Virus record (IMG/VR): IMGVR_UViG_3300042294_004068 | Span: 46,922-110,921 of that record | Strand: one strand, 5' to 3' | DNA from: a virus | Length of the DNA stretch: 64,000 bases | In this document: one piece after another, positions 3-26,929 of the stretch | Layout of the letters: every line of letters begins with the position of its first letter | Position numbering within the stretch: the stretch's first letter is position 1 | The notes under the pieces: model-generated | Database searches by the model: none | Told to the model about the DNA's origin: nothing | What the model saw: the letters and a program-made list of their open reading frames with translations, nothing else | Translations under genes and position numbers: made by a program

Positions 3-3000
3 GATAGCACCGTACCTGGTCCTACAGGTCCTCAAGGTGAAGCAGGACCAACTGGAGCTACTGGTGCAGCATCAACTGTGGAAGGACCAACTGGTCCAAC
101 TGGAGCGACAGGTCCTCAAGGTGAAGTAGGACCTACAGGTGCGACAGGTCCAACAGGAGCAGATAGCACAGTACCTGGTCCTACAGGTCCTCAAGGTGAG
201 ATTGGTGTAACTGGTCCTCAGGGTGAACAAGGTGTAACTGGTCCACAAGGTGAAGTAGGACCTACAGGTGCTACAGGTCCACAAGGTGAGATTGGTGTAA
301 CTGGTCCACAAGGTGAGATTGGTGTAACTGGTCCAACAGGTGCTACAGGCGAACGTGGAATTAGTTCTCTATCTTGGACATACAAGATAGATGTAACAAA
401 CACCGCAGATAGAGACCCAACCAATGACTATATAGGTTTTGTAACTCTACCTTTTGAGTCAGCTACTCAAATCCTAGTAGACGACAACCCTTTTGGAATA
501 AACACAACTCTTCACGATTTGTTCTTAGGCATTCAAAATGGCTATTTCACACTAACAAGTCAAACTAATGCTGGTACTTACGCCACATATGAGATTACTT
601 CTTGTGTAGCTGGAACTGCTACTAATGAGACAACACCTGGAAGTTATGTAGTTTTTAACGTAACTTCTTACACAGGTTATGGCTCATTTACTCATGATGA
701 ATTAGTTACATTGTCGCTTGGACTTACTGGTCCACAAGGTGAAGCAGGACCAACTGGTGCTACAGGTGCAACTGGTCCACAAGGTGACACTGGGCCTACA
801 GGTCCTCAGGGTGAACAAGGTGTAACTGGTCCTCAGGGTGAACAAGGTGTAACTGGTCCACAAGGTGAGATTGGTGTAACTGGTCCTACTGGTCCTCAAG
901 GTGAGATTGGTGTAACTGGTCCACAAGGTGAGATTGGTGTAACTGGTCCTACTGGTGCGACTGGTGCACAGGGTATTGCTGGTATTGGTGTAACCATTCT
1001 TGGTTCCTATCCAGATGAATCAACTCTTATTGCTGCAAACCCAACATACACAACCCCACCTGCCGACTGGGACAACTTTGCTATGTATGGACTATATGAC
1101 TTAGTCACACATGCAGGTCAAGTTTGGATTCTTGCTGCCATTGGTGGCTGGACTGTCGGTGGTCAACCTGGTTTAGGTTTTGGATGGGCTGAATACACTC
1201 AACCAGCATCAGGTGATGGTTACTTAGTAACTGGTGATCTCTATGTTTGGGATGCTGTAAACACCGAGTGGGACAACGTTGGAAACATTCAAGGTCCTCA
1301 AGGACCAACTGGTGCTACTGGTTCGACTGGTGAAGCAGGTCCTACTGGTCCTACAGGTTCACAAGGTGAACTTGGTAATTTTGCAATCTCTGATACAACA
1401 CCACCTACAAATCCAAATAACGGTGATGCGTGGTTTAACAGCAATAACGGAAAAACTTACGTCTATTACGACGGTTATTGGATTGAGACTGGTGCAGCTC
1501 CTGTAGGACCTACTGGTCCTACTGGTCCTCAAGGTGCTGATTCAACTGTAACTGGACCTGCGGGTGCGACAGGTCCTACTGGTCCAACTGGTTATCGAGG
1601 AATTACAGGTCCTCAAGGACCAACAGGTCCAGAAGTAACTGGTCCTACTGGACCAACTGGTCCTACAGGTTCTACTGGACCTCAGGGTGAAGTTGGTGCC
1701 ACAGGTGCAACTGGTGCCCCATCAAATGTAACTGGACCAACAGGACCAACTGGTCCAACTGGTCCACAAGGAACAGCTCTAAGCCTTCTTGGAGAGGTTG
1801 CAAACGTAGGTGCTTTGCCTACAGGCGGAAACTCTCTCAATGATGGCTATGTAGTTGTTTCTAATGGAAATCTTTATGTGTGGGATGGTTTTGGTTGGGT
1901 CGATGCTGGACAGTTTGTAGGCCCTACAGGTCCTGACGGTCAATTTATCCCACAGGCAAACACTCCGCCATCAAACCCAGTAGCAGGTCAAGTTTGGTTT
2001 GATACAAACAATGGTGCAGTATTTGTTTACTATGACGACTTCTGGGTAGAAGTTGGTAGTACCGAATTTGGTGGCGCTACTGGACCTACTGGTCCGCAAG
2101 GAACTGTTGGAAATATAGGACCTACTGGACCTCAAGGTGCTTCTCTAACATTTAGAGGAAACCTAAATACATCATCTCTTCTACCTACAGGCGGAAATCA
2201 GACTAACGATGCATACATCATTACTGATTCAGGAAATCTTTGGATTTGGGATGGAACAGCTTGGACTGATAGAGGACGATTTGTAGGACCAACTGGTGCT
2301 ACTGGTGCTACTGGACCAATTGTTACTGGTCCTACAGGTCCACAAGGTGTTGGTTCTCAAGCCAAGGGTTACTACAACACATACGCTGAGTTCATCGCTG
2401 GTGCTGGCGCAACTTCTGGTGAAGTTGGAGACTTCTACGTAATTTACGAAGAAGACACCATCTACATTTACACAGCAACTAATGGATGGATTGAAGCTGG
2501 TGCTTTGATTGGACCTACTGGTCCAACTGGTGCTGATTCAACAGTAGCTGGCCCTACTGGCCCAACAGGTGGAGCTGGTCCTACTGGACCTACTGGTCCT
2601 CAAGGTACTTCAATCACTATGAAGGCAAGCGTTGCGACTGTTGGTAATCTCCCAGCAACTGGCAATACTATCAATGATGGTCGTGCTGTTGATGCTGATG
2701 GTGACTTATATGTCTGGGATGGCGATAGCTGGAATAACGTAGGACAAATTGTTGGTCCAACAGGTCCGACTGGTCCGGGAGTTACAGGTCCAACTGGCCC
2801 TGCATCTACTCAACCGGGACCTACTGGCCCAACAGGTCCATTCGGTCCTACTGGTCCTAAGGGTGGTGTTACTTATCAAGTAACTTCTACTGGAGATAAT
2901 GGCTCCTACTCAGTTGAAGGAATTATTGGTAACAACCCAACATTAATTGCAGTTCGCGGTGAGCGTTTATATATTGATGTAAGTCAGGTTTTAACTGCTA

Positions 3001-3638
3001 ACCCATTTGCACTGAGACTAACTCAGTTCTCATCTTCAACAGTTCCAGGAACTATTAATAACTCACCTACTCAAGGTCGTTCTGGTGCAAGTGCTGACAC
3101 AACAATTATTTACGATGTTCCTTTAAATGCACCTACCTCACTTGTATATGTAGACGTTACAGATCCAAGTATTGGTGGAATTATTGAAGTTGTAGACAAA
3201 ATTGGTCCTACAGGCCCTTCTGGTCCTACTGGAGCAACAGGAACTCCTGTCTCAGCTTCTTATGTTCCTATTGCTGGTGGGGTAACTGGTACACCAAATG
3301 TGTTTGGAGAGTATACAAAATATGGTCAAGATGTTTCTTTCTATCTTAGAGTTGTATATTCAAACTCCACTTTTAGTGCTGCTCAATTAACAGTAACTCT
3401 TCCATTCCTACCAAACGGTGCTCAAGTAGTGACTGCTGTTGGAGTTTTAGATATTAGTGGTTCTCAAACTGGTGCAATTTATGGAGTAAAAGCAGTTACT
3501 CAAACCGAGGGTTCTGCAACTATGAAAATTTGGTTTGAAGGAACAAACGGCCTGTTGACCGCGGTAACTGGAACAGCGCCAACTACACTTTCTACAACTG
3601 CAGTTTTGTATCTAACAGGATCTTACGTATCGAACTAG
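3..3638 (+). CDS. Collagen-like (Gly-Pro-Thr) fibre protein, 5'-truncated; C-terminal fibre head domain
   Basis: Frame is open from nt 3 ([11 protein letters not shown]...), so the GTG at 78 is internal. Long G-X-Y tracts dominated by GPT/GAT/GPQ are separated by repeated W-rich linkers (LYVWDG..W.NVG; GDAWF...YVYYD.YW). Confidence 0.85.
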
Positions 3639-25421: not shown

Positions 25422-26929
25422 TGAAATTTGTAGTCTGTGGTGGTGGAACAGCTGGATGGCTTACCGCTTTAACCATTCACTCTAGTAATCCAAAGTTTCA
25501 TGAAGTAGTGGTTATAGAATCACAAAAAATAGGAATTATTGGAGCTGGAGAGGCTACAAGCGGTTTTCTCTACGATGTATTAGATGGCTCTACTTTATTT
25601 GGAAATAATCAAACAATGAACCCAAACAAAGTGGCTTTTGATTTTGCAGAGTTTGCTAAAAAAGTCGATGCTGTACCTAAGTACGCACTTAAACACATCA
25701 ACTGGGCTAAAGACAAAGGCTCTTATTGGGCACCAATTAACGGCTCAGAAACTTCTAAGCGCTCTCCTGACCATCTATTTAATTATGTTGTAACAGAGTT
25801 TGGTCCTGAAAAAGCTTATCTATCTTCTGTATTAGGGCAGTCTTATGATCTAAATAAACTTCCGCCAGCGGGTGGAGGTTATGGGTTTCAGTTTGATGCC
25901 CATAAAGTAGCTAAATTTTTACGAGAGTATATAACTACAACCACAAAAACTACTCATATAGATTCAATTATCAAGGATGTTACTGTTACTAGCGATGGTC
26001 TAGTTGAAAGCGTAATTATCGAAGATGGTCAAGTCATTGAAGGAGATTTTTTCATTGACGCTACTGGATTTGTTAGATTGTTGGCAAACAAGGTCGGGAT
26101 TGGGTGGACAGACTACAAAAACCAACTTCTTGTAGATAGAGCTATGCCTTTTATAGTTCCATACAAAGAAGAAGAAAAAGTACAACCTGTAACAGTTGCA
26201 GAAGCTCTTTCTTCTGGTTGGATGTGGCGAACTCCTACAGGAGGCCGCCGAGGTTGTGGGTATGTCTACAGCAGTGCGTTTATTTCTGAGGATGAAGCTC
26301 AAAAAGAAGCTGAAAAAATTATGGGGCACCCTATTGAGCCAATTAAGCATATTAAATATGAATCAGGCCGAGTGGACCAATTTTGGAAAGGCAATGTTTT
26401 GGTAGTTGGCCTTGCAAGCTCTTTTATTGAACCTTTAGAGGCAACCAGTATTCATGCAACTATTATGCAAATTTTTAGTTTCTGTCAAGAGTATCTTTCA
26501 GATACAAAAGAAAAAACTTTAAACCCTGCTTCAATACAAAAATACAACGCTAAAACTGAAAAAATGTATGAGTATTATAAAGACTTCACGGTGTTCCACT
26601 ATCAAGGTGGAAGAGAAGATTCCGAGTTTTGGAAAACTATTAAGTTCGACAAGATTACCTCTCCTGCTGTAGAAAACTACATCGAGAGGTCAAAGAGTAG
26701 AATTCCTAGTGCTTTACATTTTATGGATTTTTGGGGTGTAGATTCTCTATGGAAGTGGACCTTAGCTGGTCTTGGGTATGTTTCAAGAGAACAAGCAATG
26801 AGTGAGTTGAAACAATTTGATCAATTTGAATTTGCTCAAGCTCAATACAGAGCATTTAGAGAAGACATGAGAAAAATTCATGAAAATAGTAGACCTTTTG
26901 AGATGAATCCCAAAGACTTTATTATTTAA
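25421..26929 (+). CDS. Flavin-dependent halogenase (tryptophan halogenase family)
   Basis: GGGTAGW FAD motif, IGAGEAT, conserved Lys in AVPKYAL, FQFDA, FFIDATGF, GWMWRTP (WxWxIP-like), FIEPLEATSI; GTG overlaps upstream TAG. Confidence 0.88.
   Translation: MKFVVCGGGTAGWLTALTIHSSNPKFHEVVVIESQKIGIIGAGEATSGFLYDVLDGSTLFGNNQTMNPNKVAFDFAEFAKKVDAVPKYALKHINWAKDKGSYWAPINGSETSKRSPDHLFNYVVTEFGPEKAYLSSVLGQSYDLNKLPPAGGGYGFQFDAHKVAKFLREYITTTTKTTHIDSIIKDVTVTSDGLVESVIIEDGQVIEGDFFIDATGFVRLLANKVGIGWTDYKNQLLVDRAMPFIVPYKEEEKVQPVTVAEALSSGWMWRTPTGGRRGCGYVYSSAFISEDEAQKEAEKIMGHPIEPIKHIKYESGRVDQFWKGNVLVVGLASSFIEPLEATSIHATIMQIFSFCQEYLSDTKEKTLNPASIQKYNAKTEKMYEYYKDFTVFHYQGGREDSEFWKTIKFDKITSPAVENYIERSKSRIPSALHFMDFWGVDSLWKWTLAGLGYVSREQAMSELKQFDQFEFAQAQYRAFREDMRKIHENSRPFEMNPKDFII

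Follow-up and report, generated by a model that had tools for sequence, protein, structure and literature searches.

Collagen-like fibre genes and a candidate SgtA-type glycosyltransferase in the genome of a freshwater actinophage

The stretch of DNA analyzed here, called the window, comprises 64,000 nucleotides (bases 46922-110921) of the linear 110,921-bp IMG/VR virus record IMGVR_UViG_3300042294_004068, which is estimated to be 83% complete and comes from a freshwater siphovirus-like actinophage of ~110-130 kb. The + strand arm at the beginning of the window encodes seven collagen-like proteins and is closed by the genes of a methyltransferase (MT; 23760-24335), a two-domain glycosyltransferase (GT; 24345-25421), and a flavin-dependent halogenase (25421-26929). 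An earlier note, made from the sequence alone, had pointed to seven co-oriented collagen-like genes rich in GPT and GAT triplets, followed by these three enzyme genes, and proposed that they form a system for glycosylation of collagen on the virion. The profile searches confirmed the presence of all these genes (the Pfam families Methyltransf_24, GT2 plus TPR, and Trp_halogenase for the enzymes), and the relation between the GT and the collagen-like proteins became the subject of this work.

Seven + strand open reading frames (ORFs) carried Pfam Collagen repeats (PF01391), with E-values from 2.7e-39 to 9e-5. Two of them, 3660-4361 (22.6 bits) and 22634-23095 (23.5 bits), scored below the Pfam cut-off of 27.2 bits and were counted as collagen-like on the strength of a G-X-Y run (7 or 10 triplets) in each. 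The gene at 3-3638 (Collagen E 2.7e-39) is cut by the window edge, its true start being at contig base 44239; the window holds the C-terminal 1211 aa of the 2106-aa product with 125 triplets, in which many GPT/GPQ/GAT segments are interleaved with repeated beta-rich knob modules and which matched PHROG tail-fibre families. The proteins encoded at 3660-4361 (233 aa), 4376-6265 (629 aa, 77 triplets), and 7418-8068 (216 aa, 35 triplets) share an N-terminal plug motif AIDFP..W.W.G..W (AIDFPN..W.W.G..W in the first of them) that matches the N-terminus of the tail-collar family phrog_3449. The 797-aa protein (16979-19372, 78 triplets), whose C-terminus (residues 657-793) matches the tail-fibre connector family phrog_677, and the 528-aa protein (21028-22614, 33 triplets), recognized by both Pfam Collagen and PHROG, have a common N-terminal domain of ~100 aa with 46% identity (E 2e-19). 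The shortest product (22634-23095, 153 aa, 10 triplets) ends in an adaptor domain.

The triplets were counted in runs of at least five Gly-X-Y units. The arm contains 492 of them, among which GPT (133), GAT (84), and GPQ (48) stand out; Thr occupies 53% of the Y positions and Pro only 2.4%, while 46% of the X positions are taken by Pro. Across the entire contig (110.9 kb) there are 55 such runs, 49 of them in the collagen arm, and shuffling of the same proteins gave a mean of 0.65 runs with a maximum of four. The absence of a visible prolyl hydroxylase, also stressed in the earlier note, held for 2OG-FeII_Oxy_3 (PF13640), the sole hydroxylase family searched, which had no match across the ~83% complete contig.

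The collagen-like proteins are modular, and the C-terminal domain of the 629-aa protein (residues 484-627) is homologous to that of the 153-aa protein (residues 29-150; blastp E 5e-13). Both genes open parallel pairs, 4376-7190 and 22634-23727, in which the gene of a collagen protein ended by the adaptor precedes another gene, for a putative binding head. In the first pair the head is a kelch/DUF6242-like beta-propeller, a candidate fibre tip (6267-7190, + strand; phrog_8700, with both DUF6242 and Kelch_1 matches weak and below the cut-off); in the second it is a CBM_4_9/head-spike-fibre-like jelly-roll, a candidate carbohydrate-binding tip (23098-23727, + strand; CBM_4_9 E 1e-9, and NCBIfam GTA_spike_fiber E 5e-8, below the cut-off). 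The latter gene probably starts at ATG 23098, although its frame is open from 23062. A frameshift joining 22634-23095 with the CBM_4_9 gene was considered and rejected, as the two ORFs are separate in relatives and the ATG follows the stop codon. Much of the signal in the PHROG matches to tail-fibre and collagen-like minor tail families came from the repeats themselves. Altogether, the plug motifs, adaptor domains, separate propeller and CBM tips, and tail-fibre PHROGs point to the collagen-like proteins being receptor-binding fibres. In cultured Nanopelagicales phages, collagen-like proteins are encoded in a hypervariable, presumably host-recognition island (PMC10202952).

The fibre anatomy lends no support to the suggestion that these proteins form a coat or nap affecting the sinking of virions, since it fits modular receptor-binding fibres. 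Nor did the proposed resemblance to the spore protein BclA extend to the family level: Pfam scans of the seven proteins gave only Collagen, with no BclA-type C-terminal (C1q/TNF-like) domain detected, the N-termini are phage-type plugs and not exosporium-targeting regions, and the C-termini match PHROG families of tail-fibre, connector, or adaptor annotation; the collagen proteins are thus not BclA family members, although their collagen stalks may work like those of BclA. As a separate observation, the translated C-terminus of the 797-aa protein (19030-19372) contains GHPF and YQCLSHPAM, i.e., a His/Cys/His/Met set with type-1 copper (cupredoxin)-like spacing.

The GT is a 358-aa protein encoded on the + strand, 1.25 kb downstream of the end of the collagen genes. 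It matched Pfam Glycos_transf_2 (25.7 bits at a cut-off of 23.3), TPR_19 and TPR_2 (residues 248-337), and phrog_13126 (E 7e-117). The AlphaFold2 (AF2) model of high confidence (pLDDT 95.7) consists of globular domains only, a GT-A beta/alpha core and ~8 TPR-like helices, the helical repeats spanning residues 176-351. The best full-length fold matches were the peptide glycosyltransferases SunS and ThuS (E ~2e-15, 13-15% identity), OGT and GmaR matched the TPR part of the model, and there were no DNA-modifying enzymes among the top 49 fold matches. GmaR was also the only chain of solved structure which aligned to the GT domain in a sequence search (E 0.004). The family alignment revealed E12, DTGSTD, PWRFD.ARN, D83-x-D85-E86, and H143-E144 as invariant, and the motif layout quoted in the earlier note (NE, DTGSTD, PWRFD.ARN, D.DE) falls on invariant or near-invariant columns. 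Judging from its sequence and surroundings, the GT is a candidate Thr O-glycosyltransferase for the collagen-like fibres.

The MT, encoded on the + strand directly upstream of the GT, is a class I S-adenosylmethionine-dependent O-methyltransferase of the Methyltransf_24 family (Pfam E 9.5e-13; 49.4 bits at a cut-off of 26.3). Its AF2 model (pLDDT 90) was closest to MeT1 of Mycobacterium hassiacum, after which the sugar O-methyltransferases SpnH and NovP ranked among cation-dependent catechol O-methyltransferases. In most of 64 close phage relatives, whose GTs are 63-100% identical to that of the window, the collagen arm ends in the MT-GT pair. Fusions of the two activities were also found: Methyltransf_24 precedes GT2 and TPR in two proteins (P0130, P0143), whereas in two others (P0126, P0132) the GT-TPR part is followed by the MT, P0126 matching the rhamnosyl O-methyltransferase family RMNT_CmcI. 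The phmmer searches revealed no separate MT homologue beside the cellular or the distant viral GTs; the separate MT gene therefore appears lineage-specific, though fusions exist elsewhere. Taken with the modeled fold, the fusions make a glycan O-methyltransferase the most economical reading of the MT, which it probably is. Methyl-capping of the glycan, as the earlier note envisaged it, gained from the fusions and sugar O-methyltransferase folds and lost from the equally good catechol O-methyltransferase matches; it is plausible and weaker than the GT part of the proposal, and we hold methylation of the glycan by this enzyme tentatively, at a little less than even odds.

The closest known system is the SgtA-BclA3 pair of Clostridioides difficile. 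SgtA (CD3350), a protein of 358 aa with the GT domain in residues 1-260 and TPR in residues 262-358, is encoded beside bclA3; it modifies Thr residues in the BclA3 collagen repeats with beta-O-GlcNAc (PMC7157674). The window GT has the same length and the same GT-A/GT2 plus TPR layout, and Gly-X-Thr collagen genes lie nearby. It differs from SgtA in being phage-encoded and paired with a methyltransferase, and its presumed substrates are several modular phage fibres, without a detectable BclA-type C-terminal domain, rather than a spore-surface protein.

To place the window GT in its family, homologues were collected from metagenomes and from cellular and viral genomes. The family is very common in freshwater metagenomes: of the candidates scored, at least 5,763 proteins reached E <1e-5, and there were 930 clusters (50% identity) at E <1e-30. 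Prokaryotic genomes, one for each species, yielded at least 588 cellular relatives, of which the best 80 were examined. These 80 were homologous over the full length (43-56% identity) and belonged nearly all to spore-forming Bacillota, with Oscillospiraceae, Lachnospiraceae, Brevibacillus, and Desulforamulus among the groups represented. A GPT/GAT collagen ORF was present in the flank of 47 of the 80 and within 1.5 kb in 42; the usual order was collagen then GT on the same strand, with a gap of 50-100 bp. Homologues in Clostridia form a two-gene cassette as in SgtA-BclA3. Of 300 evenly sampled Clostridia genomes, 41 had a full-length GT match. A second, more distant tier of Clostridia homologues (22-29% identity with the window GT; profile E 1e-40 to 1e-49) was represented by 20 loci. 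Ten of these have an adjacent collagen gene, and the GT often precedes it, as sgtA precedes bclA3; by comparison, 20 control regions of 13 kb taken from these genomes contained no collagen-like ORF (Fisher p 4e-4). One homologue from the Clostridia sample (G059:C60:837-1853, E 5e-76) has 13 in-frame TAG codons, which suggests that its contig, perhaps of phage origin, reads TAG as an amino acid.

When only loci with enough flanking sequence were considered, a collagen ORF lay within 3 kb of the GT in 52 of 81 cellular loci (42/63 in the first tier and 10/18 in the second) and in 17 of 18 viral loci. The corresponding figure for distant viral relatives was 28 of 49 loci, drawn from 80 relatives of varied contexts and with the collagen gene mostly upstream on the same strand; the control regions were all from cellular genomes. 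In the FastTree phylogeny of 183 GTs, each of the four groups included collagen-adjacent members, and the virus/cell label switched at least eight times; the collagen link is therefore a property of the GT family and not of one clade. Co-occurrence of the GT with GPT/GAT collagens was thus observed both among spore-forming Bacillota and across several lineages of phages (0/20 in the cellular controls), and together with the SgtA length and layout and the peptide-GT folds it places this enzyme in a family tied to Gly-X-Thr collagen genes. Grouping with lipopolysaccharide or host-surface GTs was not seen in any test run. Membership of the window GT in the SgtA family is probable by architecture and neighbourhood. 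A locus in a Nanopelagicales metagenome-assembled genome was considered as a related prophage and rejected, as only the GT was common with the window phage.

The genes, repeats, predicted folds, family-wide neighbourhood, and fusion proteins raise the hypothesis that the phage GT glycosylates the phage's own collagen-like fibres, i.e., that collagen O-glycosylation of the SgtA type has been transplanted to phage fibres, to which we assign a probability of about two in three. In such a mechanism the + strand arm would encode modular fibres whose stalks are collagen-like triple helices of GPT and GAT triplets. In the infected cell, the TPR domain of the soluble GT would hold the extended Gly-X-Thr chain and the GT-A domain would transfer a sugar from a nucleotide sugar to the Thr hydroxyls of the stalk, presumably in a metal-dependent manner because of the DXD motif. 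The adjacent Methyltransf_24 enzyme would then probably O-methylate the sugar, and the outcome would be virions with glycosylated fibres. The Thr-linked sugar may substitute for hydroxyproline in helix stabilization, because Pro is nearly absent from the Y positions and PF13640 had no match. What we infer concerns the acceptor (Thr of the phage collagen) and its sugar, the target of methylation, any effect on the helix, and where on the virion the fibres are.

Besides the cellular-only baseline, several observations weigh against glycosylation of the fibres by this GT. The location of the GT beside phage fibre genes may reflect simple late-module organization. About 40% of the homologue loci have no nearby collagen gene, and homologues from jumbo phages such as PaBG (27-32% identity) also lack a collagen neighbour. 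Tandem GT2-TPR pairs with no adjacent collagen gene occur in Lachnospiraceae and Paenibacillaceae downstream of hisS, aspS, 5'-nucleotidase-LysM, and GNAT genes (loci L076, L080, L086, L096, L100, L109, L114, L123, and L147); a flagellin-glycosylation context was rejected for them, the neighbours being hisS, aspS, 5'-nucleotidase-LysM, GNAT, and a chemoreceptor gene. In INPHARED, a DNA search gave collagen-repeat matches in 51 Synechococcus phage records, whereas the protein search with the GT gave only two, and the GT is therefore not required for such collagens. As for the MT, its fold matches small-molecule catechol O-methyltransferases equally well, and in two IMG/VR relatives (L059 and L060) the MT and GT genes are flipped together with respect to the collagen arm, pointing the same way as the early genes (whiB and replication); they therefore act as a two-gene cassette that can move.

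Four other roles of the GT were weighed. Phage GTs near tail-fibre islands are usually thought to act on the host (PMC7029224, PMC10202952), and the GT and MT might remodel a cell-wall glycopolymer or another surface glycan of the host envelope, e.g., against superinfection, with no relation to the fibres. The label given by JGI to homologues ('glycosyltransferase involved in cell wall biosynthesis'), the UDP-galactopyranose mutase and another GT encoded by the related phage DSL-LC01, and the co-orientation of the MT-GT pair with early genes in the two inverted loci are in line with this role. The GT model, however, is built of globular GT-A and TPR domains only and its best folds are peptide GTs and not polysaccharide GTs; moreover, the tie to collagen is seen in cellular genomes, in which superinfection exclusion is irrelevant. 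Remodeling of the host envelope hence seems unlikely. It is a little harder still to accept that the substrates of the GT are virion proteins other than the collagen stalks, namely the capsid, the tail tube, or the giant structural proteins. The precedent is Che8-type mycobacteriophages, in which C-termini of the capsid and tail-tube proteins are reported to be glycosylated (Freeman et al. 2023, as cited in PMC12619734), and the major capsid protein of the window phage has five G-x-T-[GA] sites versus 0.8 expected, a number reached in one of 300 shuffles. These sites are scattered, however, and the excess is one result among 21 proteins tested; over the virion proteins as a whole, a weak and scattered excess was seen for the capsid protein and a 1208-aa protein, whereas the tail tube and portal proteins have no such site at all. 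The family-wide partner of the GT is, besides, a collagen gene.

Modification of phage DNA by base glycosylation or methylation, protecting it from restriction, is a frequent function of phage GTs (PMC10202952; PMC12619734), and the MT weakly matches PHROG families named 'DNA methyltransferase'. This function is highly improbable here, given that none of the top 49 GT folds is DNA-modifying, that the MT folds as a cation-dependent O-methyltransferase and not as a DNA methyltransferase, and that the collagen neighbourhood in cellular genomes would be left unexplained. Finally, the co-location might be incidental, the convergent junction with whiB being a hot spot for accessory genes and the GT acting on a host protein. 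The junction does vary, with the halogenase present or absent, additional small ORFs inserted, and inversions. Retention of the MT-GT pair across relatives at 63-100% identity and recurrence of the GT-collagen link in unrelated genomic contexts speak against coincidence, which we regard as quite improbable. Glycosylation of the phage's own collagen-like fibres thus remains the preferred reading.

Systems other than SgtA-BclA3 resemble the proposed one in part. SunS and ThuS (PDB 7MSN, 7MSK) have, as the window GT, a GT-A domain followed by a TPR domain holding the peptide, and differ from it in that Cys of small bacteriocin peptides is glycosylated instead of collagen repeats, the sequence identity being 13-15%. 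The Listeria protein GmaR is also a GT2 plus TPR protein O-glycosyltransferase (flagellin O-GlcNAc transferase); it acts on flagellin, doubles as an anti-repressor, and is only weakly similar. With regard to residue specificity, ThuS also glycosylates Ser/Thr. In Che8-type mycobacteriophages, according to PMC12619734, phage-encoded GTs modify the phage's own virion proteins; the likeness is that of actinobacteriophage GTs acting on own virion proteins, and the targets differ, being C-terminal extensions of the capsid and tail-tube subunits and not collagen-like fibres. Mimivirus offers another example of virus-encoded glycosylation of virion fibres combined with collagen-like proteins. It is a eukaryotic virus, and its collagen is modified by a lysyl hydroxylase/glucosyltransferase. 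That enzyme belongs to another family than the window GT and uses another acceptor residue. No description of glycosylation of phage collagen-like fibres was found in the literature searched.

If the proposal is true, many abundant aquatic phages have sugar-coated receptor-binding fibres, and host recognition, protease resistance of the fibres, and virion stability could be affected. To our knowledge, phage-encoded glycosylation of the virion has so far been demonstrated only for capsid and tail-tube proteins of mycobacteriophages. The phage fibres would also constitute a second, independent setting for Thr-glycosylated collagen of the bacterial type, and a short collagen ORF with the GT would make a simple two-gene system in which a possible stabilization of triple helices free of hydroxyproline by Thr-linked sugars could be examined.

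The halogenase had been included in the system by the earlier note, and here the data did not follow. The gene (+ strand; Trp_halogenase E 2.6e-83) encodes a relative of RebH, PrnA, and the cyanophage enzyme VirX1, with the FAD motif (GxGxxG) as GGGTAG at residue 7, WMWRTP as a variant of the WxWxIP motif at residue 267, and a Lys in the region expected for the catalytic one. The stop codon of the GT and the start codon of the halogenase share one base (TAGTG). The gene accompanies the MT-GT pair in approximately 27 of the 64 close relatives, in a position which varies (downstream of the GT, or separating it from the MT). Neither the 100 cellular loci nor the 80 distant viral ones had a halogenase homologue in the vicinity of the GT. 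On account of this patchy distribution it was rejected as a member of the system, to which it is improbable that it belongs; it is an accessory gene. The most elaborate scenario, in which Thr glycosylation of the stalks by the GT is followed by capping of the sugar by the MT, the translationally coupled halogenase adds halogen to the glycan or to conserved Trp/Tyr of the knobs, and the sugars replace hydroxyproline, is very improbable; if true, it would describe the first virus halogenating its own virion proteins. A second flavin-dependent halogenase is encoded outside the window, at contig positions 12318-13952 (Pfam E 8e-96; GGGTAG and WMWMIP motifs), and has as neighbours two genes of M23 peptidases, of which one carries LysM; a 313-aa ORF without a Pfam match comes after the halogenase gene.

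The collagen arm contains further genes beyond those stressed in the earlier note. Apart from the kelch/DUF6242-like and CBM_4_9 genes, they encode two virion structural proteins, of 894 aa with an Ig-like domain (8163-10847, + strand; He_PIG E 4e-10; phrog_22713, phrog_5838) and of 2034 aa (10865-16969, + strand; phrog_5838 'virion structural protein' E 3e-142; phrog_2885, baseplate wedge subunit), and an S8 subtilase-family peptidase (19385-20977, + strand; Peptidase_S8 E 2.7e-30; phrog_9158 E 3e-63), which synteny showed to be kept in many relatives.

The contig is syntenic with Actinomycetia phage DSL-LC01, whose 129-kb genome was assembled from Dishui Lake (PMC10611076). The gene runs of the two phages match: collagen proteins, the giant structural protein, more collagens, the halogenase, and the GT, which closes the collagen arm in DSL-LC01, are followed by convergent WhiB and replication genes. 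In the window, whiB occupies positions 26922-27470 on the - strand and the replication genes follow on the same strand; both WhiB and the relatives suggest that the host is an actinobacterium. A siphovirus-type tail module on the - strand includes the tape measure (43888-47634), minor tail proteins, and the major tail protein (50571-51617). The major capsid protein (52590-54710, - strand; 706 aa) has an N-terminal acidic low-complexity region of ~310 aa rich in Ala/Glu/Pro. The 1395-aa portal-containing product of 55577-59764 (- strand; PHROG matches) looks like an unusually large fused portal protein, its C-terminal half strongly matching PHROG families of portal and of head-maturation protease/virion structural proteins. 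Upstream of the window, the contig encodes TerL, a primase-polymerase, M23 peptidases, a class II ribonucleotide reductase, and ThyX. It also contains genes for an Na+/H+ exchanger family protein (26687-27868), a serine recombinase with Resolvase and Recombinase domains, which suggests a temperate lifestyle (32707-33390), and a 1233-aa PA14-domain protein (33457-37158; all in contig coordinates).

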